Positions 2,335 to 57,336 of a stretch of 64,000 nt of DNA are shown piece by piece. This DNA comes from an uncultured Dehalococcoidales bacterium. GTDB taxonomy: Bacteria > Chloroflexota > Dehalococcoidia > GIF9 > AB-539-J10. Each line of letters starts with the position of its first letter. Within the stretch, counting starts at the first letter, position 1. Below the pieces are notes generated by a model. It searched no databases and was not told the origin of the DNA. It saw only the letters and a list, made by a program, of their open reading frames with translations. The stretch is from positions 154,539-218,538 of the forward strand of contig CAZPGJ010000004.1 in NCBI GenBank assembly GCA_964586515.1, given 5' to 3'. Both the position numbers and the translations under genes were made by a program.

Positions 2335-2525
2335 TGTCATTGCGAGCAACCTGCCCGCCTGTTCACCGTACGACTTCGGCAGGCGAGCCAAGGCTTGGCA
2401 GGCGGGAGCGTGGCAATCTCTATTGCCCCCACCGAGATTGCTTCGGCTGACTTCGTCAGCCTCGCAATGACAAAGGGGGTGTCGTGCCTCGCAATGACAG
2501 AAGAAGCGTGTGCCTCGCAATGACA
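2335..2525. repeat. GTCA/TGAC-tagged palindromic (REP-like) cluster with nested insert and three right-end copies
   Basis: TGTCATTGCGAG...GCAATCTC left half, GAGATTGC...CTCGCAATGACA right half; CTCGCAATGACA recurs near 2461, 2488 and 2514. Confidence 0.85.
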
Positions 2526-3770: not shown

Positions 3771-4157
3771 ATAACAATTCGTAGTTATCAGGACTTGGAG
3801 GTATGGCAAAGGGCGATGGATCTGGTAGAAGATTGCTATCGACTGACAAAGGAATTTCCCAAGGAAGAAGTCTATGGGCTTTCAAGTCAGTTGCAACGTT
3901 CAGCGGTTTCAATTCCAGCCAATATAGCCGAAGGCCGAGAACGGGGACGTACAAAAGAGTTTCTCCATCACCTTTCAATCGCTTATGGTTCCCTTGCTGA
4001 ATTAGAGACTCACATTTTGATTGCTCGACGCTTGGACTGCGTTAGTGAAGAGAATATAGGGCAATTGATGGATAAAATGGCGGAGATTGGGCGTATGCTT
4101 AATGGTTTGCGGGGGTCTTTAAAACACAGAACCCAGTCCCCGATCCCCAGTTCCTGA
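3771..4157 (+). CDS. Four-helix-bundle protein (23S rRNA IVS protein family); start codon uncertain
   Basis: IRSYQDLEVWQRAMDL..FPKEEVYGLSSQLQRSAVSIPANIAEG signature. The conserved N-terminus lies upstream of the TTG at 3795; the ATG at 3757 is out of frame. Confidence 0.85.
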   Translation: MTIRSYQDLEVWQRAMDLVEDCYRLTKEFPKEEVYGLSSQLQRSAVSIPANIAEGRERGRTKEFLHHLSIAYGSLAELETHILIARRLDCVSEENIGQLMDKMAEIGRMLNGLRGSLKHRTQSPIPSS

Positions 4158-6645: not shown

Positions 6646-6905
6646 CGTCATTGTGAGCCCTTCCCCACATGTCATTGCGAGCGACCTGCCCGCCTGCTCG
6701 CCGTACGACTTCGGCAGGCGAGCCAAGGCTTGGCAGGCGGGGGCGCGCGGCAATCTCCGAGATTGCTTCGGCTGGTTTCACCAGCCTCGCAATGACAGGG
6801 CCGTGTCATTGTGAGCCCCGACTTGTCGGAGCGAAGAATCTCCCCTCTCTGCTCAAGTCTGTCATGACCGGAATCGAAGGGCCTGTCCTAAGTAAAGGCG
6901 AACGG
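6646..6905. repeat. REP-like palindromic repeat cluster at the left edge of the TA islet
   Basis: Several GTCATTG(C/T)GAG left halves, one complete unit closing with CTCGCAATGACA, and a nested 57-nt insert matching 2350..2406. Confidence 0.85.
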
Positions 6906-7476: not shown

Positions 7477-7677
7477 ATGGCGATCAGGGAGCGCCTTATC
7501 AATAAGATACAATCTTTGCCAGAGGATAAGCTCGATGAAATTGCCGACTTCATCGAATTTCTAGAGGTAAAAGGGAAAGCACAATCTGCCCTGGCAGAAT
7601 ATGGGATGGGCGACTATTTGAACCAACTGTCAGCCTACGAAGAGATGCTGGCTGCTGGCAAGATAAAGTGGACATAA
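7477..7677 (+). CDS. DUF2281-like antitoxin
   Basis: LINKIQSLPEDKLDEIADFIEFL pattern; GGAGG RBS; overlaps the PemK/MazF toxin start. Confidence 0.7.
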   Translation: MAIRERLINKIQSLPEDKLDEIADFIEFLEVKGKAQSALAEYGMGDYLNQLSAYEEMLAAGKIKWT

Positions 7678-8012
7678 AAAGAGGAGATATTTTCTTAGTC
7701 GACCTGAATCCTGTTGTAGGCGCAGAACAAGCAGGCATAAGGCCTGCCCTAGTAATACAGGTAGACAGAGCAAATGCAGCTAGCCCTCACACGGTCATCA
7801 TTCCATTCACCACAAGGATAAGAGAGGTTAAGCTACCTTCCCATGTCAGGATACCTGCTGGTATTGGAGGATTGGCAGAGGACTCGATACTTCTGTGTGA
7901 GCAGATAAGAGTCATTGACAAAAGAAGACTGGTGCGGAAGATAGGCAGTATTGGAGAAGACTATTTAGGAGAGCTTGGCATAGCTATCAAGGTGATATTA
8001 GGTCTGGAATGA
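7668..8012 (+). CDS. mazF: PemK/MazF family endoribonuclease toxin
   Basis: RGDIFLVDLNPVVGAEQAGIRPALVIQ, LCEQIRVIDKRRL. Confidence 0.9.
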   Translation: MDIKRGDIFLVDLNPVVGAEQAGIRPALVIQVDRANAASPHTVIIPFTTRIREVKLPSHVRIPAGIGGLAEDSILLCEQIRVIDKRRLVRKIGSIGEDYLGELGIAIKVILGLE

Positions 8013-23821: not shown

Positions 23822-24559
23822 CTATTTTCCTTGCAGCATTGCCAGATAGTGATTTATTACACTCTCAGTATCACCCATGGTGACAATCTGGCCTTCGTTC
23901 AATAGTATCGACCGGTCGCACAGCTTCTTCACGGACTCCAGGGCATGTGAGACAAAGACTATGGTCCTGCCGTCGGTTTTGAACTGGTTCATCTTGTCCG
24001 CGCACTTTTTCTGGAAGGCTTCATCGCCCACGGCAAAGACTTCGTCTATGAGGAGGGTGTCAGGGGTGGCGTTGATGGCGGTGGAGAAAGCCAGCCGCAG
24101 GAACATGCCGGAGGAAAAGTTCTTCAGCTTCATATTTTCGAATTTCTTGAGCTCGGCGAAGTCGAAGATGTTGTCATAAGCCTTGTCCACCTGTTTTCGC
24201 CCCAGGCCGAGGATGGAGGAGTAGATATAAACGTTTTCGCTGGCAGTTAACTCGGGTTGAAAGCCAACGCCCAATTCCAGGAAGGAAGCAACCTTGCCGT
24301 TCATGCTGACCGAGCCACTGTTAGGGTACAGGACCTTTGCCAGTATTTTGAGCAGTGTGCTCTTTCCCGAGCCGTTCCTGCCGATTATGCCCAGCGCTTC
24401 GCCCTTGTTGACCTCGAAGCTGACGTTCTTTAGCGCCCAGAACTCTTCGTAGCTGAACTGCCTCTTGATAAGGCCGACTACGTTCTGGAAGACCGTGGTC
24501 TTCTTTTCGTGGGGGATGCGAAATCTCTTGGAGACGTTGTCTACGACTATGGCGCTCAT
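23822..24559 (-). CDS. wzt: Polysaccharide ABC transporter ATPase, without C-terminal carbohydrate-binding domain
   Basis: FWALKNVSF, GRNGSGKST, FSSGMFLRLAF, IDEVFAVGD; 245 aa. Confidence 0.92.
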   Translation of the reverse strand: MSAIVVDNVSKRFRIPHEKKTTVFQNVVGLIKRQFSYEEFWALKNVSFEVNKGEALGIIGRNGSGKSTLLKILAKVLYPNSGSVSMNGKVASFLELGVGFQPELTASENVYIYSSILGLGRKQVDKAYDNIFDFAELKKFENMKLKNFSSGMFLRLAFSTAINATPDTLLIDEVFAVGDEAFQKKCADKMNQFKTDGRTIVFVSHALESVKKLCDRSILLNEGQIVTMGDTESVINHYLAMLQGK

Positions 24560-24567
24560 TAGTCTAT

Positions 24568-24735
24568 TTCACCCTCACCTTAATCCTCTCCCGTCCAGGG
24601 CGAGGAGAAATGGTTGGCAGTCCTCTCCCATCGAGGGAGAGGAAAGATAGTCGGCAATTCTCTCCCACCAGGGGAAAAGCAGATTGCCATGTCCCGAGAT
24701 CCCTCGCTTCAGCTCGGGACGACTCGCGATGACGG
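24568..24735. repeat. Repeat cluster between wzm and wzt (CCCTCACC..CCTCTCCC family plus GTCA/TGAC right half)
   Basis: CCCTCACCTTAATCCTCTCCC, CCTCTCCC-ATCGA-GGGAGAGG, and GATTGCC..GTCCCGA..TCGGGAC..CTCGCGATGAC. Confidence 0.75.
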
Positions 24736-24763: not shown

Positions 24764-25519
24764 TCATGCCAGCTCCTCGGCAAACCGGCGGTGTAATCTG
24801 CCGAAAACGAGGCTGCCCACGAGAAAGGCGGCGGCGGCGAAACCAACGACGACCACAACGCTATACGGTGAGGGCAAAGTCCCGGCGACCATTACATCGC
24901 GGTACATAGTTATGAACTGAGTTACCGGATTAAGCGTGTAATAGGGTAATAGAGAAGCAGGAACTATGCTAATGGGATAGAAGATGGGTGAGCAGAAGAA
25001 GAGGACCTGGAGCAGGACTTGCCATATCTGGTTCAGGTCACGGAAGTAGACATAAAGAGAGGACAAGAGCAGCCCGGCGCCGTAAATGAACCAGAAGAAG
25101 GGTATGTAAATCAGGAGGAACAGCGGCGTCGTGACGGGCAAATGTCCGAGCACGACGACTATTATGAGCAGCAAGACCACAAACGTGAGCAGGGAATTTA
25201 TCAGACCGGACAGGACATCGCTCAGCACCAGTATCTGACGCGGTATGTAGACCCTGGTTACCAGGCTGGCCTTGCCGACGATGGCCTGGAGGCCGGAGTT
25301 GGTGCCGGTGGCGAAGAAATTCCAGGCCATTATGCCCACCAGCAGGTTTATGGCGAAATTCTGCTCTTGGCCGTACAGGTGTCTGAAGACGAAGTACAGG
25401 ACGCCTGCCATCAGAAGCGGGCTGAGCAGAGACCAGAAAAAACCAAGGGCGGTATTCTGGTAGCGGTTCTTGAGGTCAACGGTGGTCAGGTTCCAGATTA
25501 GCTCTCGGTATTGCAACAT
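24764..25519 (-). CDS. wzm: Polysaccharide ABC transporter permease
   Basis: DLKNRYQNTALGFFWSLLSPL, YFRDL, PIFYP, LNPV. Confidence 0.92.
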   Translation of the reverse strand: MLQYRELIWNLTTVDLKNRYQNTALGFFWSLLSPLLMAGVLYFVFRHLYGQEQNFAINLLVGIMAWNFFATGTNSGLQAIVGKASLVTRVYIPRQILVLSDVLSGLINSLLTFVVLLLIIVVVLGHLPVTTPLFLLIYIPFFWFIYGAGLLLSSLYVYFRDLNQIWQVLLQVLFFCSPIFYPISIVPASLLPYYTLNPVTQFITMYRDVMVAGTLPSPYSVVVVVGFAAAAFLVGSLVFGRLHRRFAEELA

Positions 25520-27430: not shown

Positions 27431-27543
27431 AGCCTCCTTCAGACAGAACGCATACTAGCTGACTCCCTTTACAGTATTCAACGTCAGACGCTCTTGAGAA
27501 CTGGTCAATAGTCTAGAGTCGGGAGTTAGATTAGTCAAGGCAC

Positions 27544-27615
27544 TGAGTTCGTCGAGTTTATTGAGTTTGTTGAGTTCATTGGGTTCACTGAGTTTATTGG
27601 GTTTGTTGAGATGGC
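27544..27615. repeat. Degenerate 9-nt tandem repeat (about 8 units, consensus TGAGTTTRT)
   Basis: TGAGTTCGT CGAGTTTAT TGAGTTTGT TGAGTTCAT TGGGTTCAC TGAGTTTAT TGGGTTTGT TGAGATGGC. Confidence 0.8.
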
Positions 27616-27655
27616 TAGATTGCTACGCCCTTCTAGCGAAGGGCTCGCAATGACA
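27602..27655. repeat. 54-bp direct repeat, left copy (REP right half)
   Basis: Matches 28480..28533 with one mismatch. Confidence 0.9.
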
Positions 27656-28424: not shown

Positions 28425-28479
28425 GTCGGGGAAACGATTTTGGCATGCTTACCTTCAATTTTGACTTTTGGTCATTGAT

Positions 28480-28576
28480 TTTGTTGAGATGACTAGATTG
28501 CTACGCCCTTCTAGCGAAGGGCTCGCAATGACAGAAGTGGTGTGCAATAGCGAAGTAGAAGACAGCTCGCAATGAC
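28480..28576. repeat. 54-bp direct repeat, right copy, plus an extra CTCGCAATGACA end
   Basis: 28480..28533 matches 27602..27655; second right end near 28566. Confidence 0.9.
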
Positions 28577-32596: not shown

Positions 32597-33922
32597 TCAT
32601 GCTTGGTTTTCTAGCTTTCTTAGTAGCTCTCTTCTTTTGCCTTCGTCAAGTCTTATTTCGTTGTCCTCTACCTGGTATCGGGGCTCAAGCAGGACCATCT
32701 TATTCGCACCCAGGTCTTGGCTCAAACATACCTGTGGTCCTACGAAAGAATCAGGACCCACTCGAACCCCGGGCATGAGGCTGGCATTTACTCCGATGCG
32801 GCAACCTCGACCCACAATTGCCCCTAGTTTATCATAGGTGGTATCCACCAGAGTATCACCGACTTTTATCCGGATATTCCCTTCATCGAGCCGGAAATTA
32901 GCCAGCACAGTACCAGCACCCAAAGAGCAACCATCATCCACTATGGAGTCACCGATATAATTGGAGTGAAACCAGCAATTATCGCCGATGTAGGAGTGCT
33001 TTACCTCAGTGGAATAGCCAATAACAGAGTTAGAACCAATGTGGCTGTAGTCTCGCACCAGGGCATTATTGCCAATGATGGACTTTGCCCCGATATACAC
33101 AGGACCTCGAATCACAGCATTTTCCAATACCTTAACATTATCGCTCAGGATAACTTTTCCTTCGATGTTCGCTTTCTTGGAGACACGGGCTGAAGAGGCA
33201 ATATAAGGTTGAGCGTTGTCCAGAAAATACTCCATTACTTTGAAGATATGCCAGGGGTATTTTATGGGTGCCCAGAAATCGTTGTGGGGAATCACCTTGA
33301 TCTTGTGTCCTGACTTCACCATGTTGTCCAGGGCGCATTCATAGACATCATCCCTGTTGGTCCGCACGGTTTTAATATAGCGTAAAAGCTCTTCCGAGTT
33401 ATTATGGCAGTGAATCAGGATGTTTACTAGGTTGCTGGGTTCCTTACCGGGAGTGGGCTTTTCCACGATGTGTAGTAGCTCATTTTGAGAGTTTACCTGG
33501 AGATAGCCTCCCGGGAAGTATTTCTGGACTTGATAACCCAGGATATAAGAGGATGTAGAGGTTTTTTTAGCTGCGGCGATGATTTTGGTGTACGCTGAGC
33601 TTGAGAAGACATCATTGGGATTTATGACCAAAAGCTGCCCGTGCAGGAAGGGCTCAGCGCTTTTCAAAGCATCAGCGATACCTGATGACTTTTTTTGTAA
33701 AGCAAGGTCAACTTTTATCCCGGGAATTTTTTTAGTTATTTGCTTTATCTTCGCTGTGTTTTTCGGATTCCCAATGATTACAAAATGACTCAAACCTGCC
33801 TCGCAGGCTACTTCTATTTGATGTTCGAGCAATGGCTTCCCGAGAAAATCAAGAAGGAACTTGTCTTCAGTGATGGGAAACATCCTTTTGCCGCGGCCAC
33901 CGCAGAGAAATACAGCTTTCAC
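32597..33922 (-). CDS. glmU: Bifunctional sugar-1-phosphate nucleotidyltransferase/acetyltransferase (archaeal GlmU type)
   Basis: Nucleotidyltransferase N-terminus plus beta-helix with YIGDSIV, GAGTVLANFR, KLGAIVG; located between glmM and glmS. Confidence 0.75.
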   Translation of the reverse strand: MKAVFLCGGRGKRMFPITEDKFLLDFLGKPLLEHQIEVACEAGLSHFVIIGNPKNTAKIKQITKKIPGIKVDLALQKKSSGIADALKSAEPFLHGQLLVINPNDVFSSSAYTKIIAAAKKTSTSSYILGYQVQKYFPGGYLQVNSQNELLHIVEKPTPGKEPSNLVNILIHCHNNSEELLRYIKTVRTNRDDVYECALDNMVKSGHKIKVIPHNDFWAPIKYPWHIFKVMEYFLDNAQPYIASSARVSKKANIEGKVILSDNVKVLENAVIRGPVYIGAKSIIGNNALVRDYSHIGSNSVIGYSTEVKHSYIGDNCWFHSNYIGDSIVDDGCSLGAGTVLANFRLDEGNIRIKVGDTLVDTTYDKLGAIVGRGCRIGVNASLMPGVRVGPDSFVGPQVCLSQDLGANKMVLLEPRYQVEDNEIRLDEGKRRELLRKLENQA

Positions 33923-35280
33923 CTGTTAGCCTCCACCAGACTTTGAACAAGTTTTTTGCCTTTGTTTATAAGCTCATCAGTCTGTGTCTGCGATGTTGAC
34001 TCGGAGATTACTCGGAGGACAGGTTCGGTGCCACTAGCTCTGATAAGTATCCAGGAGTCAGGAAAATCCAGCCTCAGGCCATCAAGAGTATTTATCTCAT
34101 CATAAGCAAATAGGTGAGCCTTTTCTTTTACCTGAGCCATGACTGACTCTTTAAGTTCATCAGGACAAAAAACCTTTGCTTTTCCGAAGAATAGTCTGGG
34201 CATACCTTGGAAGAATTGTCTGATTTCGCCAGCATTGCTTAGCTGACTTAACAAGAAAAGTGAGGCGAAAATGCTATCGGGATAATAGCCCGCTTCGGGG
34301 ATGATGTAGACACCTACCTGTTCCACTCCTAAGGCAGCATCGAGCTCCTGGGCTAGATGAGCCACAGCGACATCGCCAACCCTGCCTTTAATCACTTCTA
34401 CTCCCAGGTCTTTCACTGCCAGGTCAAGAAGTGTTCCAGTTTCTACTGTGGTGGCAATCTTTTTCCTTCCCGTTTTCTTGACGACCAATCTCGAGATGAA
34501 GGCGATGGGCTCGTTGAAACCGAGGAAACCTTCTTTATCGCAGAAAACAACGCGGTCAGCATCGCCATCAAAGCAAATAGCTAAGTCAGCATTATGTTGT
34601 CTCAGGAAATTAACTGTGTCCTGAAGAGTATCCTCCTTGGGATCGGGGCTTCTCCCCAGGAAAAGGCCATCTGGCTCATCATTTACAGGTAGTACATCAA
34701 GGCCCATCTGGACAAAGATGGCGCTGGCAAAGTTGGAGGCAGCGCCATTGCCAGGGTCAACGACTATTTTTAGGTGAGGATTAAATCCTGGCCGAGAAAG
34801 CTTGCCTTTAATAAAGGAAAGGTATCTTTGTTTCATATCTTGTGCTTGCTCCAAAGTTCCTTTCTTCCCCTGGCGGAATTTTTGTTCAAAATAGACTTTC
34901 TCTATCTCCGCTTCTTGAGCCTGGCTATATCCCAGCGAATTCTCGGTGAAGAGCTTGATTCCATTGAACTCAGGTGGATTGTGGGAGGCTGTGACCATAA
35001 TTCCAGCGGCAAAGCCCGATTCCCGGGTGAGTAATGCCAGCGCTGGAGTAGGCAGAATGCCTAAATCAACTACGTTTATGCCACAGGAAAGCAAGCCTGC
35101 ACAAACTGCTTCCTTAATTACATCCCTGCTTATCCTGGTGTCGGTAGCGATACAAACTGTGGAGGCCGGAGGCAGGGTAGTGCCTATGGCTAAGGCAACC
35201 CGGCGGTAGAAATCGGGCGATAAATCTTGGTTGATTACGCCCCGGATACCACTGGTCCCAAATAGTCTCCTTGTGTGCAT
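33919..35280 (-). CDS. glmM: Phosphoglucosamine/phosphomannomutase
   Basis: LFGTSGIRG, MVTASHNPP, FDGDADR, RASGTEP; start trimmed to ATG 35280. Confidence 0.8.
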   Translation of the reverse strand: MHTRRLFGTSGIRGVINQDLSPDFYRRVALAIGTTLPPASTVCIATDTRISRDVIKEAVCAGLLSCGINVVDLGILPTPALALLTRESGFAAGIMVTASHNPPEFNGIKLFTENSLGYSQAQEAEIEKVYFEQKFRQGKKGTLEQAQDMKQRYLSFIKGKLSRPGFNPHLKIVVDPGNGAASNFASAIFVQMGLDVLPVNDEPDGLFLGRSPDPKEDTLQDTVNFLRQHNADLAICFDGDADRVVFCDKEGFLGFNEPIAFISRLVVKKTGRKKIATTVETGTLLDLAVKDLGVEVIKGRVGDVAVAHLAQELDAALGVEQVGVYIIPEAGYYPDSIFASLFLLSQLSNAGEIRQFFQGMPRLFFGKAKVFCPDELKESVMAQVKEKAHLFAYDEINTLDGLRLDFPDSWILIRASGTEPVLRVISESTSQTQTDELINKGKKLVQSLVEANR

Positions 35281-35294
35281 TTCCTGTCTGCCCG

Positions 35295-35359
35295 TGTCAT
35301 CCTGAGCGAAGCGAAGGATCTCCGAGATTCTTCGGTCGTTACACTCCCTCAGAATGACA
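35295..35359. repeat. Complete GTCA/TGAC palindromic unit
   Basis: TGTCATCCTGAGCGAAGCGAAGGATCTC-CGAGATTC...CTCAGAATGACA. Confidence 0.85.
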
Positions 35360-35488
35360 TGAGGGGTGAGTAGTTGCATTAAGTAGAGGATAGCACGGAA
35401 TCGAGTGGTTGGCAATTAGTACACAATGTAATGATATATGTTAAACTATGCTTCCCGGTCGTAAGCAGCGCTGTTTTGGAAGCATATA

Positions 35489-52374: not shown

Positions 52375-52740
52375 TTGCCACGAGCTAGAAGCGGGAAAGT
52401 TACTCACAGACGACATAAGAAAGTACTTGAACTGACCAAAGGGCATCGGGCTGCCAGGCACAAGCTTTATACTGTAGCTCATCAGTCTATGCTTCATGCC
52501 TTAGATTATTCCTACCGTCATCGTCGTGAGCGGAAAGGCGACTTCAGAAGGCTATGGATTACTCGCATTAATGCTGCGGCACGGGCTAGAGGGCTTACTT
52601 ACAGTCAGTTTATAGTCGGGTTAAAAAAATCAAATGTAGAAATCGATCGCAAGATGTTAGCTGAGATGGCAGTCAAAGATCCTGAAGGTTTTGCTACATT
52701 AGTAGCTTCGGTAACTGAGAATAACTCACCCCGCTTGTAA
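52375..52740 (+). CDS. rplT: 50S ribosomal protein L20
   Basis: [25 protein letters not shown]; TTG start. Confidence 0.96.
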
Positions 52741-52799
52741 TGACGTTATGCCTGAAAAATCCAGGATTTTTGGATAAGGATAACATTGCGTGGCAGTCG

Positions 52800-53834
52800 A
52801 TGCTGAAACAACTCAAAGACCTTCATGCGCAAGCTCTCGAGGAGCTAAATAAAGTTGATAATCCGCGGGAGCTGGAGTTGTGGCGCGTTCGCCACCTGGG
52901 TAAGAAAAGCAGTTTAACTCAAATTCTACATTCTTTGGCTGCCTTGCCCCTGGAAAAACGACGAAGGGTGGGCGCCCAAGCTAACGAAATCAAGAGAGCT
53001 TTAGAGTCAAGCCTGGAAGAGAAGGGGAAATTACTACAGGAAGCCCTCTTGGCCTCTCCTCGGCAATCCCAAAGATTAGATGTTACCTTGCCTGGTCGGC
53101 CTCTCCCGGCAGGCCGACTTCACCCCACCACTCAAATACTTAAGGAAATTTGCGACGTTTTCCAAAATATGGGCTTTCAGGTAATTGAAGGACCTGACGT
53201 GGAGTGGGATTACTATAACTTTGAGGCCTTAAATATCCCCCAACACCATCCGGCGCGAGATATGTTTGCTACCCTATGGATAGATGCAGGCATAGGGGAG
53301 AAAGCCAGACTTTTGCGTACGCACACTTCCCCGATGCAGATCAGGTTGATGGAGAGGGAACGACCGCCAATAAGAGCCATAGTACCGGGTCGAGCTTATA
53401 GATATGAAGCGACCGACGCCACTCACGAATCTATGTTTTATCAGGTTGAGGGTCTGGCTGTGGATAAGGGCATAACCCTGGCTGATTTAAAAGGCACCTT
53501 GTTTGACTTTTGCCGTTGTATTTTCGGTGAGGAAAGGAAAATGCGCTTCCGCTGCGATTACTTCCCCTTCGTGGAACCCGGGGTAGAGGTAGCCATCGGG
53601 TGTTCAGCCTGCGGTGGGGTCGGCTGCCGACTGTGTGGCTACAGCGGCTGGATCGAAATACTGGGGGCGGGGATGGTGCATCCCGACGTCCTGGCACGGG
53701 TGGATATCGACCCCAAACTTTACAGTGGTTTTGCTTTCGGGTTGGGAGTTGAGCGTATACCTATGCTGCGCTATGGTATTGATGACATCCGCCTCTTTTA
53801 TAGCAATGACCTCAGGTTTCTGAGGCAGTTCTAA
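52800..53834 (+). CDS. pheS: Phenylalanine-tRNA ligase alpha subunit
   Basis: [30 protein letters not shown]; start trimmed to ATG 52800. Confidence 0.96.
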
Positions 53835-53850: not shown

Positions 53851-56322
53851 ATGAAAGTTTCCCTCAAATGGCTCAAAGATTATGTTGACATAAAACTTGC
53901 TCCTGAAGAGCTGGCCAAGATGCTAACCATGGCTGGCTTGGAGGTCAAAAGCATGCAGGCTATAGGTGGCACCTGGGATAATGTGGTAATAGGGGAAGTA
54001 GTAGCAGTAAATCCTCATCCTAATGCTGACCGCCTTAAACTAGCTACAGTTGACGTGGGCACTGAGCAAGTCACCACGGTTTGCGGTGCCTCTAATATCG
54101 GCCTTGGTCAAAGAGTGACTTTTGCCCACATAGGAGCCCGGCTTATAGACCCGCACACTGGAGAAGCTATGGTGCTAAAGCCGGCTAAGATTCGTGGCGT
54201 TGTTTCCGAGGGCATGGTCTGCTCGGAGAAGGAGCTGGGGATTTCTGATAGTCACGAGGGCATTTTGGTATTGCCGCCGGAGGCGCCCATAGGCGCTCCT
54301 CTCGGTGCTTATCTGGGCGATGTGATTTTGGACTTAGATATAACGCCCAACCGCCCCGATTGCTTATCCGTAATTGGCATCGCCCGCGAAATTGCTGCCC
54401 TAACTGGCGAACCGCTGCGCTTGCCTGAGATTCGTTACGAAGAAACGGAAGATTCAATAGGTTCTTTCGCATCCGTTGACATAGCCGCTCCCGACCTGTG
54501 CCCCAGGTACTGTGCCAGCTTGGTTACCGGAATCAAGATAGCCCCCTCCCCGGGCTGGCTACAGCAGCGTCTCAATAGCTGCGGCATGCGTCCCATTAAC
54601 AACGTGGTTGATATTACTAATTATGTGATGCTGGAATATGGTCAGCCCCTTCACGCCTTTGATTATCATAAGCTTAGTGGCCGACAAATTATCGTTCGTA
54701 GGGCTGGAAATGGTGAGACCATAACTACCCTCGATGGCTCAAAGCGTGCTCTTATTCCGGACATATTGGTTATTGCCGATAAGGAGGAAGCTGTCGCTGT
54801 GGCTGGAATCATGGGTGGTCTGGATTCCGAAGTTACGGACAAGACTGACAGTATCCTCCTGGAATCGGCAAATTTTAACCAGGCTGCCATTCGTCGAGGT
54901 TGTAGCCATCTTCAATTCCAAAGTGAGGCCTCGATGCGCTTTGATAAAGGGCTTAATAGCGAGCTTCCGCTACTACCATTGAAACGGGCCACTCAATTGC
55001 TGCTGGAGCTAGCCGGCGGCAGGGTAGCCAAGGGCATAATTGATGTTTATCCCGGGGAATCAGAACCAAAGCCTATATTGCTTTCTGCCCAGGAAGTGAA
55101 ACGTATTTCGGGCTTGGAAGTTACTATTGAGGAAATGCTTAAGGTATTAAAAGCCTTAGGCTTTGAATGCCAGGAGGACAGTGCGGGCTCGCAGATTTTG
55201 GTGTCTGCGCCTTACTGGCGCAGCGACATCAAATGCTCTGCCGACCTCGTGGAGGAGGTAGTCCGCATCATCGGTTATGAAAAAGTCCCGATCACCAGGC
55301 TTGGCTCTCCTTTGCCTCAACAAAAATCAAAATTGTCACAGCCAGCCCAGCAGAGCAATCTCAAGGAGAAATTGCGCAACGTCCTGACTGGCTTTGGCTT
55401 TCAAGAGATATTAACTTATTCTCTGGTCAGCCTGGAGAAGTTGCAAAAGCTTTCCTCGAAGCTTGAGTTGAGTATTCCGCCTTTAAAGGTAGCTAACCCC
55501 ATGACGAGGGAACAAGAATACCTGCGTACCAGCTTGCGGGCTGGTCTTCTGGCCACGTTGGCACATAACCAAAAATTTGAGCAAGCCGGCATAAGGCTCT
55601 TTGAAATTGGCAAGGTATTCTTGCCCCAGCATCCTCACGTCATTGCGACCCTGAGTGAAACGAAGGGGAAGCAATCTCAAGAAGAAAGAGAGCTACCCCA
55701 GGAAAAAGAGATGCTCTGTGCTGTACTCAGCGGCGCAAGGGCAGAATTGTCCTGGCAAGCTGATAAAGAGCCGCTTGATTTCTTTGATGCCAAGGGGATA
55801 GTGGAGAATCTCCTGAACCATTTGGGGCTGAAACCGAGTTTTGATACTGGCGATGATGAAATTCTATTCCCGGGAAGAGGGGCTAATATAATCGTTGAAG
55901 GTGACAAAGTAGGTGTTGTAGGGGATATGCACCCCAGGGTAACACAAGCCTTTGAGCTTTCTGGTGCTGCTTGCCTTATAGAAGTTGACCTGGAGAAATT
56001 GTTGACCAAGATTACTGGAATAAAGGAATATCAACCTCTTCCACGGTTTCCCAGCGTAACCAGAGATATCGCCTTAGTAATAGATGAGCAAGTGAGCTAT
56101 GGAAGAGTAGAGAACATAATCCAAAGCTTCCCGCTAGTGACAAAAATAACTCTCTTTGACCTCTATCGAGGAGAGCAAATAGCCGAGGGCAAGAAGTCTT
56201 TTGCCATAAGGATTATTTACCAATCGCCCAGTCATACCTTGACCGACGAGGAAGTTGACCGGACTCAGGAACAGATGCTTAGTAGGCTGAATCAGGAACT
56301 TGGTGCCAGTTTGAGGGATTGA
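53851..56322 (+). CDS. pheT: Phenylalanine-tRNA ligase beta subunit, with two repeat-derived in-frame inserts
   Basis: [35 protein letters not shown]. Confidence 0.97.
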
Positions 56323-56432
56323 TTCTCTGAATCTAAAGTGAACAATCTGGACTTAATTTCGCTACTAGGTTTAATTTCCTCGAACTTTGCGAAGGTACAA
56401 AGCCTGTGTTAGGCGAAGTTGTCGGAAGCCTA

Positions 56433-57287
56433 TTAAATATTTTTGTAATAAAGAATTTCAGTTATTTTATAGGTAGCTTTGAGAACTTTAAATGCAATTT
56501 CATCGATTTCCATGTCACGGATTATTTTATACTCCTCCAATTTATCAACGGTTACTTTATAGTCCTCTTCTTTTTCGAAGATCTTTTCATATCCTCCTTC
56601 CTTTTTAGGGATCAATTTGTATGACTTTGCCTTACCTTCTGCACCTCTAACCTTTATATTTTTTCTGTTTTTAGCAAAATTCACCATCCACACGATATCT
56701 CCATGGATGAATTTATCCAAAACTTTCCTGCCTTCTTGACTTTTGAATTTAAGTTCCTGAAATGCCTCTTCAATTTCTTGTTTTTTCTCCTTTGGAACTT
56801 CTTCGATTAATTTAACTAAGGAGTTATACTTCTTATCCTTCTTCAACCATTCCAACTTCTTCAATATAACTTCAGATAATTCAGCGTTCCTGGTGGTTTC
56901 CTCCCTTGCTAACTTCTCGGCTAACCTTTCTCTTAGTCCAGACTCAATTGCGGTCCTACATAGACCAATTGTCCCTGCGGGAACTCCTGCTCTAAAACAC
57001 ATACTAGCAAATGTCAAATATTTGAAGATGTCCTTTTCACGCCGAACCCTTTCGAACTCTATGTTTCCTATTCTATCTCTATGTTTCAACAACTCATTAC
57101 TGATATTATTAGCTGCAAGCTCTCGGATGATTTGCTGCTCATGTAGAAAACCATAATTATTCGTTAGCATTTTGTCTATCCCCTCAATATCAGTATCTTT
57201 GGGTGTAAACCCATAGTGATATTTCACTATGTTTTTAATTCGTGCTTTTGCTTCACCAGAGATTGAAGACACCTTTGTTCCGCTCAT
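56433..57287 (-). CDS. AT-rich hypothetical protein, possibly HEPN/DUF4145-like
   Basis: 284-aa ORF with MCFRAG...TIGLCRTAIESGLRE helical pattern; composition visibly unlike its neighbours. Confidence 0.6.
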   Translation of the reverse strand: MSGTKVSSISGEAKARIKNIVKYHYGFTPKDTDIEGIDKMLTNNYGFLHEQQIIRELAANNISNELLKHRDRIGNIEFERVRREKDIFKYLTFASMCFRAGVPAGTIGLCRTAIESGLRERLAEKLAREETTRNAELSEVILKKLEWLKKDKKYNSLVKLIEEVPKEKKQEIEEAFQELKFKSQEGRKVLDKFIHGDIVWMVNFAKNRKNIKVRGAEGKAKSYKLIPKKEGGYEKIFEKEEDYKVTVDKLEEYKIIRDMEIDEIAFKVLKATYKITEILYYKNI

Positions 57288-57336
57288 GTTTAGGCTAAAC
57301 TTCTATAACTACTTGTTTACAAACCAAGTGTCTGTA

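Follow-up and report, generated by a model that had tools for sequence, protein, structure and literature searches.

The stretch of DNA analysed here, 64,000 nucleotides (nt) of contig CAZPGJ010000004.1 (assembly GCA_964586515.1) of an uncultured Dehalococcoidales bacterium, is called the window in the following. It carries the genes of phenylalanyl-tRNA synthetase (PheRS), and within the open reading frame (ORF) of the beta subunit gene, pheT, a 40-mer, GTCATTGCGACCCTGAGTGAAACGAAGGGGAAGCAATCTC, is found at 55639-55678 on the plus strand. The host gene was identified as pheT by the five domains of its product, tRNA_bind, B3_4, B5, tRNA_synthFbeta and FDX-ACB (Pfam PF01588, PF03483, PF03484, PF17759 and PF03147), by its similarity over the full length (residues 2-821, E = 4e-157) to the solved PheT of Staphylococcus (2RHS_B) and by pheS, which is located immediately upstream. 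In the frame of pheT the 40-mer is predicted to be translated as the 13 residues V597-S609. Taken together, the data described below make it very probable that the 40-mer is an in-frame copy of a nested-hairpin repeat, similar to repetitive extragenic palindromic (REP) elements, and that it is an old passenger in a loop of PheT which is shared with related bacteria.

The repeat family and its copy in pheT

The repeat family is laid out as (C/T)GTCATTGCGA(G), a variable hairpin core and GAAGCAATCTC. The unit is built from a (C/T)GTC tag, the arm ATTGC, GA, an exchangeable core around a mini-hairpin of the GCGAAGC type, GAA, the arm GCAAT and a CTC tail. The two-arm pattern GTCATTGYGA..N5-35..GCAATCT matched five times in the window, with 0.00 matches expected, and CATTGCGA matched 11 times, with 1.85 expected. 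The strict two-arm pattern gave 11 matches, overlapping hits included, and the pheT copy was the only one within a gene; the intergenic DNA of the window contains six two-arm copies, one variant-arm copy and solo arms, and C or T precedes every window copy. Folded as DNA, the pheT copy forms the outer pairs ATTGC/GCAAT, the inner pairs CCCT/AGGG and then GT/AC, and the hairpins of the intergenic copies are strong (z = -3 to -4). With regard to the criteria for miniature inverted-repeat transposable elements, the arms were the only inverted repeat found. Rfam, searched at gathering thresholds, gave no family for the repeat, its sole match in the window being a tRNA, and a literature search with the arm sequence retrieved only unrelated primer matches.

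To compare filled with empty sites, 120 PheT relatives with a protein identity of 83-88% were collected from metagenome-assembled genomes (MAGs) of Dehalococcoidia and from sediment metagenomes. Scans of metagenome and genome contigs for PheT gave mostly distant orthologues, and the useful relatives among them were L001, L081, L082 and L083. The site is empty in 38 of the 120 relatives, in which PheT has 805 residues and reads FLP[RQ]GKDLPEEKE. Three outgroup loci (55-57% identity) likewise lack the insert, and FLP[RQ] is followed by GKDLPEEKE or the outgroup equivalent. Alignment with HMMER revealed a gap of 17 residues in 2RHS_B opposite residues 594-610 of the window PheT. In 79 diverse PheT orthologues the loop comprises 7-40 residues with a mode of 12; the loop of the window PheT has 30 residues, and repeats are present in four of the five longest loops. 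Logan contigs from three runs of one sediment study, with depths of 27, 140 and 5.5, did not differ from the window at a single position across 55300-56000 or in the insert. Since three run assemblies reproduce the insert, it is not an assembly artefact. A minor contig in one of the same runs carried the empty allele of a relative.

These results agree with most of what a first-pass annotation of the DNA had proposed. It had marked the same 40-mer by its repeat ends, which were recovered by the two-arm pattern, and had described the nested CCCT..AGGG mini-hairpin, which was found again in the DNA fold, albeit as a weak one. It had also expected the flanks of the insert to be nearly contiguous in PheT, and this is indeed the case in the empty alleles, in the outgroup loci and in 2RHS_B; neither the PheT alignment nor the run assemblies, which bear on the two grounds of refutation it had named, spoke against an insertion. 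The reading in frame within pheT was correct as well, but the flanking residues differ slightly from those given.

The position of the insert in the protein was deduced from an AlphaFold2 model of PheT which was based on an alignment of 35 sequences and had a mean predicted local distance difference test (pLDDT) score of 87. The strands 581-591 and 617-627 pair as a beta-hairpin, which we take to be the motif-2-like element of the "catalytic-like" B6/B7 domain of PheT, a domain without a catalytic role that is known from T. thermophilus structures such as 1PYS and 2IY5. Prediction of the loop structure, a further check named by the first-pass annotation, gave pLDDT values below 50 and no secondary structure for the insert (residues 596-612). 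Therefore, the net 54 nt are predicted to add ~18 disordered residues at the tip of the beta-hairpin, and given this predicted disorder, the insert is most likely neutral for the enzyme, which would carry it as a passenger. In the dead catalytic domain of PheT, the motif-2-like loop would thus have room for 14-28 extra residues, which is of use for the engineering of insertion sites in PheRS.

Table 1 Genes, parts of the pheT insertion and further copies of the repeat family in the window. Filled DNAs are pheT alleles with the repeat, empty alleles lack it; the basic unit is the 28-nt form.
Feature	Position	Strand	Basis or remark
pheS, PheRS alpha subunit, operon gene upstream of pheT	52740-53834	+	364-residue ORF; orthologous neighbour in relatives with PF02912 and PF01409
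pheT, PheRS beta subunit, 823 residues, host of the insertion	53851-56322	+	ORF; Pfam; similarity to 2RHS_B; AlphaFold2 model
Second, older copy of the basic unit, now decayed, in the part of pheT for the B5-B6 linker, TGTCACAGCCAGCCCAGCAGAGCAATCTC	55334-55362	+	Agrees with the basic unit at 21/28 positions
Net insertion of 54 nt (18 codons): CATCCTCAC + 40-nt repeat + AAGAA	55630-55683	+	Filled and empty alleles aligned by codon
5' tag and arm, C-GTC-ATTGC-GA	55638-55648	+	Identical in 12/12 filled DNAs; arm also in intergenic copies
Variable core of the 40-nt form, CCCT-GA-GTGAAAC-GA-AGGG	55649-55667	+	Stands where the 28-nt basic unit has the 7-nt GCGAAGC
3' arm and tail, GAA-GCAAT-CTC	55668-55678	+	Variable at 2/11 sites among 12 DNAs; base-paired to the 5' arm when folded as DNA
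85-nt intergenic copy whose shell is the same and encloses the 27-nt and a further 30-nt module	2336-2420	+	
38-nt intergenic copy, GTCATTGCGAG-GCTGACGAAGTCAGCC-GAAGCAATCTC, core GCTGAC-GAAG-TCAGCC	2434-2471	-	Paired tail-to-tail with 2336-2420; DNA fold of -10 kcal/mol, z = -3.0
Second long intergenic copy, about 87 nt	6671-6757	+	Repeat family D8; 95% identical to 2335-2410
38-nt intergenic copy with compensatory changes in the core stem (GCTGGT-GAAA-CCAGCC)	6759-6796	-	
53-nt intergenic variant copy, GTCATCGCGAG...GGCAATCT	24681-24733	-	Between ORFs 23822-24559 and 24764-25519
38-nt intergenic copy, core CCCTTC-GCTA-GAAGGG (CCCTTCGCTAGAAGGG)	27616-27654	-	DNA fold z = -4.1
38-nt intergenic copy	28494-28532	-	Identical to the copy at 27616-27654

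Besides the units listed in Table 1, two solo 5' arms (TGTCATTGCGAGGCAC...) are arranged in tandem at 2488-2525 beside a complete unit, and the matching 3' arms are absent. Sibling families with other arms on the scaffold YGTCA-4 nt-GA(G)...GAAG-4 nt-TCTC were found at 6646, 6804, 8066, 35295, 35348 and 63864. Two sibling units with the arms ATCCT/AGGAT and ATTCT/AGAAT form a tail-to-tail pair at 35295-35359, which falls in the first 120 nt of a predicted ORF on the minus strand (33919-35415); the true start of this ORF probably lies downstream, which would make the pair extragenic. A tandem array of a 9-nt unit (GAGTTYATT-like, at least six copies) at 27541-27619 abuts the repeat copy that begins at 27616, and a similar junction is present at 28474-28493. 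Beside repeat clusters, a bAvd-like gene and a MazF/PemK toxin gene are located (3795-4157 and 7668-8012): the former, encoding a four-helix protein of the 23S-rRNA-IVP/bAvd type (E = 2e-40), is located within a cluster of rhamnose-sugar genes, and the latter (E = 5e-29) lies near this cluster. Downstream of pheT, the spacer to proS (56323-57336) holds an ORF of 284 residues on the minus strand (56433-57287) for which Pfam gave no match. The spacer is variable in the relatives: pheT abuts proS in L164, L165, L166 and L168, a tetratricopeptide repeat (TPR) protein of 780 residues is encoded there in L162, and two other genes are found in L167.

Allele series and age of the filled site

The site is filled in 82 of the 120 relatives and, in addition, in the more distant L083 (75% identity) and L082 (65%). 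The empty form of 38 relatives is the ancestral sequence without a repeat. Among the filled alleles, the B28 form (64 relatives) consists of GTCATTGCGAGCGAAGCGAAGCAATCTC, read as VIASEAKQS; the D55 form (four relatives) is B28 with a contiguous 27-nt palindrome, CCTGCCCGCCAAGGCTTGGCAGGCGGG, at GCGA^AGC, giving VIASDLPAKAWQAGAKQS; and in the T40 form, which is that of the window and of 14 relatives, the 7-nt GCGAAGC is replaced by the 19-nt CCCTGAGTGAAACGAAGGG. A 30-nt variant, GTCATTACGAGCCGAAGGCGAAGCAATCTC, is present in L083 and a multi-shell form of 67 nt, with several nested shells, in L082. An origin of T40 from B28 by one contiguous insertion was considered and ruled out, the longest common prefix and suffix amounting to 10 + 11 = 21 of the 28 nt; T40 is therefore a core replacement. 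The pheT forms differ in size by steps of 12 and 27 nt, which are divisible by three, and the frame is kept in every pheT allele; intergenic cores are not constrained in this way. For T40, the pheT frame is the only viable one, since both of the remaining forward frames contain stop codons. The core was very probably rewritten at least twice once the repeat was in place: the 27-nt palindrome entered exactly at GCGA^AGC and, in another event, the 19-nt module took the place of the mini-hairpin and gave rise to the window form. The alleles that survive are those with frame-keeping changes only, in the one stop-free frame.

The modules themselves recur outside pheT. The 27-mer of D55 is also nested in the same shell of the long intergenic copies of the window, with a 30-nt module inside, and the 19-mer core of T40 was found within other shells in unrelated contigs (gtcctga...gaaggaactc and tgtcaccctga...gaagggtctc). 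The canonical CCCTGAGCGAAGCGAAGGG is a sibling basic unit and was also found nested in ATTGC shells. The exact 28-mer of B28 is present in 41 IMG/VR stretches, where the preceding base is T (29), C (12) or G (1); a pyrimidine thus stands before GTC in 41 of the 42 exact 28-mers of viral contigs. These 28-mers often lie within long open frames, in any of the five stop-free frames.

In a PheT tree calculated with the insert columns left out, the allele states were scattered and required 43 changes, and the well-supported branches alone force at least 14 changes for the empty state. The scatter could point to recurrent gain and loss, but this was rejected because empty and filled alleles have distinct flank haplotypes, with D in 38/38 empty versus E in 80/82 filled alleles at one position and E in 36/38 versus Q in 79/82 at another, and because of a mosaic gene pair at the site. 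This pair, L163 (T40) and L164 (B28), is near-identical over 1.8 kb with 1-10 differences per 150 nt, and from the insert onward there are 15-39 differences per 150 nt, which reflects either a recombination breakpoint at the repeat or an assembly chimera. Residues within ~5 positions are linked to the allele state (mutual information 0.9 and 0.78); more distant residues are not. L161 (D55) and L162 (B28), on the other hand, have an identity of 97% over the whole gene, with the 27-nt indel as the difference between them, and the 27-nt event is therefore comparatively recent. Since all filled alleles share one flank haplotype, we infer that the filled haplotype has one origin and that the empty allele is of the ancestral type; and since linkage stops within ~5 positions and one gene pair is mosaic, extensive recombination appears to have shuffled the alleles. 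Recombination would thus have spread the filled alleles over diverged backgrounds.

The first-pass annotation had called the insertion young, and on this point the relatives tell otherwise: the filled site extends to the lineages with 75% and 65% identity, and nucleotide diversity is about 0.11 gene-wide and equal within and between the filled and empty classes. A recent sweep of the filled allele was also considered and rejected, the 9 nt adjoining the repeat being variable at every site. The site has been occupied for a long time, and its occupancy is polymorphic within a clade of sediment Dehalococcoidia at about the level of a genus.

Conservation of the arms and its possible causes

Arm conservation was compared in 12 filled DNAs from diverged backgrounds. 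None of the 10 sites of the 5' arm and two of the 11 sites of the 3' arm were variable (2/21 in total), versus 9/9 sites just upstream and 15/35 downstream of the repeat. The difference was significant by Fisher's test, both against the 9 nt upstream (p = 3.8e-6) and against both flanks (p = 4.5e-4). Six arm codons are identical in all carriers, synonymous positions included, and the cores are near-invariant within each allele class. The decayed copy in the B5-B6 linker, which serves as an internal clock within the same gene, is read in another frame (the SLRAKRSNL frame) and varies freely among the 12 DNAs. It adds five residues compared to L082 and the outgroups, in which it is absent; L083 and the 120 close relatives carry it without exception. 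Residues 485-492, the region of this copy, had pLDDT values below 50 in the AlphaFold2 model.

Because the arms are intact in all lineages, their state points to maintenance or homogenisation rather than recency: the repeat at the insertion site is old by distribution but "kept young" in sequence. We infer a homogenising process that keeps the repeat intact, either by ectopic copying from other genomic copies or through recognition by a trans-acting enzyme; selection on DNA or RNA is a further candidate cause. Old occupancy together with a near-invariant repeat would be a testable signature of ongoing homogenisation or enzyme recognition.

Units were also observed at other positions in or near pheT of more distant bacteria. 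L083 has a third pheT site (L083:5772-5799) with an in-frame 28-nt unit (GFECQ-KTVIASKAKQSP-QISISVPYWR) in a hairpin of the B5 domain, with a net gain of six residues. At the main site of L083, the unit is flanked by GKDELP on one side and GKKELP on the other; these flanks might conceivably represent a diverged target duplication of ~18 nt, and the alleles of the main clade have no duplication. Units with the same arms and other cores were found near pheT in L105 (2466-2502; Dehalococcoidia, 56% identity) and in L126 (8927-8964; bacterium, 38%), which hints at a distribution of the family well beyond the clade.

Several observations weigh against an old, neutral passenger with maintained arms and have to be considered. 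The downstream flank of the filled allele differs from the empty allele at ~8 of 18 positions, which greatly exceeds the background of 11%; a simple insertion does not account for it. Many of the 120 relatives are metagenome assemblies, so that part of the recombination signal could stem from chimeric assembly. The hairpin of the pheT copy is weak (-5.2 kcal/mol, z = -1.2), and structure-dependent maintenance is therefore not obvious. Among 20 small and medium-sized ORFs of the window, no Y1 transposase (Y1_Tnp) was found. The neutrality for the enzyme is deduced from a loop that is only predicted to be disordered. Finally, 28-nt and empty alleles of relatives were found in contigs of one cold-seep library labelled RNA-Seq, but this evidence for transcripts is weak because DNA carry-over in such a library is possible.

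An alternative which we regard as possible, although the balance of the data is not in its favour, is that the site is an active landing pad where a trans-acting enzyme that works on single-stranded DNA, either similar to REP-associated tyrosine transposases (RAYT) or terminal inverted repeat-associated tyrosine transposases (TIRYT) or of another type, repeatedly replaces or refreshes the element and its core at a fixed position. Such activity would account for the series of cores as well as for the near-invariance of the arms. In tag, arms and tail, even the non-palindromic positions are invariant, while the flanks vary, three core states are found on one flank haplotype, and the 27-nt insertion at GCGA^AGC is precise between genes that are 97% identical; furthermore, copies of the same 28-mer and of the same 19-mer core are scattered over unrelated contigs and viral contigs, and the pyrimidine-GTC tag is conserved in 41 of 42 copies. 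However, the 20 ORFs of the window include no candidate enzyme, the scatter of core states on the tree does not exceed that of the empty state, for which recombination alone accounts, the comparison covers only 12 DNAs, and no excision or insertion intermediates were seen in assembled contigs. Put in terms of a mechanism, the tagged pheT hairpin might, with the same reservation, be a fixed recombination site at which a putative trans-acting single-stranded DNA enzyme refreshes the arms and exchanges core modules; small palindromic modules would come and go in steps of 12, 27 and 30 nt and enter at the GCGA^AGC mini-hairpin. If true, essential proteins would carry cassette-like, fast-changing surface peptides, the DNA element would remain "young" throughout the occupation of the site, and the same 28-mer and 19-mer modules would travel between unrelated genomes and viral contigs.

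It is improbable that the insert has been co-opted and that its peptide (VIA...KQS) is under selection at the protein level, for example as a contact to tRNA or to the other subunit. V-I-A and K-Q-S are conserved in 77-81 of the 82 carriers, neighbouring HPx residues vary, and no allele has lost the frame; but the invariance of the six arm codons at synonymous positions points to a constraint on DNA, and the peptide between the arms varies freely in length and sequence (SE, TLSETKG, DLPAKAWQAG). In addition, the insert is missing in 38 close relatives and falls in a region predicted to be disordered, and long open frames elsewhere read the same DNA in five different ways, one for each of its stop-free frames.

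Even less support is left for a young, lineage-specific insertion that has not yet decayed. The ends are intact and the insert looks fresh next to the older, decayed copy in the same gene, but the same site with the same junctions and flank haplotype is filled in relatives and in lineages with only 75% and 65% identity, the nearest relatives with the 40-nt form are only 86-88% identical to the window in DNA, and the variability of all 9 nt adjoining the repeat among the 12 carriers shows that the allele class is not a recent coalescent. An assembly artefact, or an ancestral loop that resembles the repeat by chance, can be dismissed for practical purposes, since nothing but the origin of the sequence from a MAG speaks for it, whereas three run assemblies are identical at a depth of up to 140, the chance expectation is 0.00 and the outgroups lack the loop.

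We thus return to the shared passenger as the preferred explanation: the copy is most probably a tolerated one in a loop modelled as disordered, and the main interest lies in what keeps it intact and rewrites its core.

Comparison with known repeat systems

Palindromic repeats in genes are already known, as Rickettsia palindromic elements (RPEs) and as intragenic REPs. For the study of the movement of such small units and of their present activity, the window and its relatives offer a natural allelic series from a wild population at one site of an essential gene with a single function: empty, 28 nt, 28 + 27 nt and 40 nt. In the broad sense the repeat is REP-like, being a short palindromic unit that is present in multiple copies and is mainly extragenic.

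The closest description is that of the CGTC-tagged REPs, of which four families have been defined, whose intragenic copies have hosts that include tRNA synthetase genes, and to which RPE-4 and RPE-6 are equal (Di Nocera, De Gregorio & Rocco 2013, BMC Genomics 14:522; PMC3733652). Like these, the repeat is a short palindrome with an unpaired CGTC/TGTC tag at one end and an unpaired tail of 3 nt, its stem opens with A-T and T-A pairs, its copies are mostly intergenic with some in genes, and no dedicated transposase is known (PMC3733652). Unlike these, it has no continuous stem of 8-9 bp but one of 5 bp (ATTGC/GCAAT) followed by tandem G.A and a 2-bp mini-hairpin; the loop of 4-5 nt is replaced by a core with a GAA triloop in the GCGAAGC mini-hairpin or by a nested hairpin, 17-57 nt in size; the tail is CTC and not CCA; and the pairs 2336/2471, 6671/6796 and 35295/35359 are arranged tail-to-tail, whereas CGTC REPs mostly form head-to-head dimers. 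Moreover, the host belongs to the Chloroflexota, a phylum that is not listed for the CGTC REPs (PMC3733652). Because stem, loop, tail and dimers deviate from the published descriptions, the repeat was not placed in any of the four families.

REPs and REPINs are short hairpins, often in inverted pairs, for which movement in single-stranded form has been proposed, brought about by a RAYT, a Y1 transposase related to IS200/IS605 that recognises a tag plus a hairpin (Bertels & Rainey 2011, PMC3116915). The combination of a short tag and a hairpin is shared with them, and RAYT-mobilised REPINs may serve as a mechanistic model. The RAYT-linked REPs differ in having a GTAG tag, REPINs are almost entirely extragenic and an exchange of nested cores has not been described for them; here, the tag is (C/T)GTC and a copy resides in a gene.

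RPEs are inserted in frame into unrelated housekeeping genes with a peptide that is compatible with fold and function (PMC10969869), and in this respect they resemble the repeat, which was detected in frame at three distinct positions of pheT across the lineages compared and, in the window, at a hairpin tip predicted to be disordered. They are, however, about 100-150 bp long and encode a conserved peptide in one frame, whereas the unit described here has 28-55 nt, a modular nested core and several frames. The hosts differ as well, the present unit being found in free-living sediment bacteria. A further lead is provided by the small dispersed repeats of cyanobacteria, ~21-27 nt in length, which according to Elhai and co-workers (Genome Research, 2008) reportedly insert into one another and into conserved genes; they share this habit of nesting with the repeat in pheT and differ from it in sequence and host phylum.

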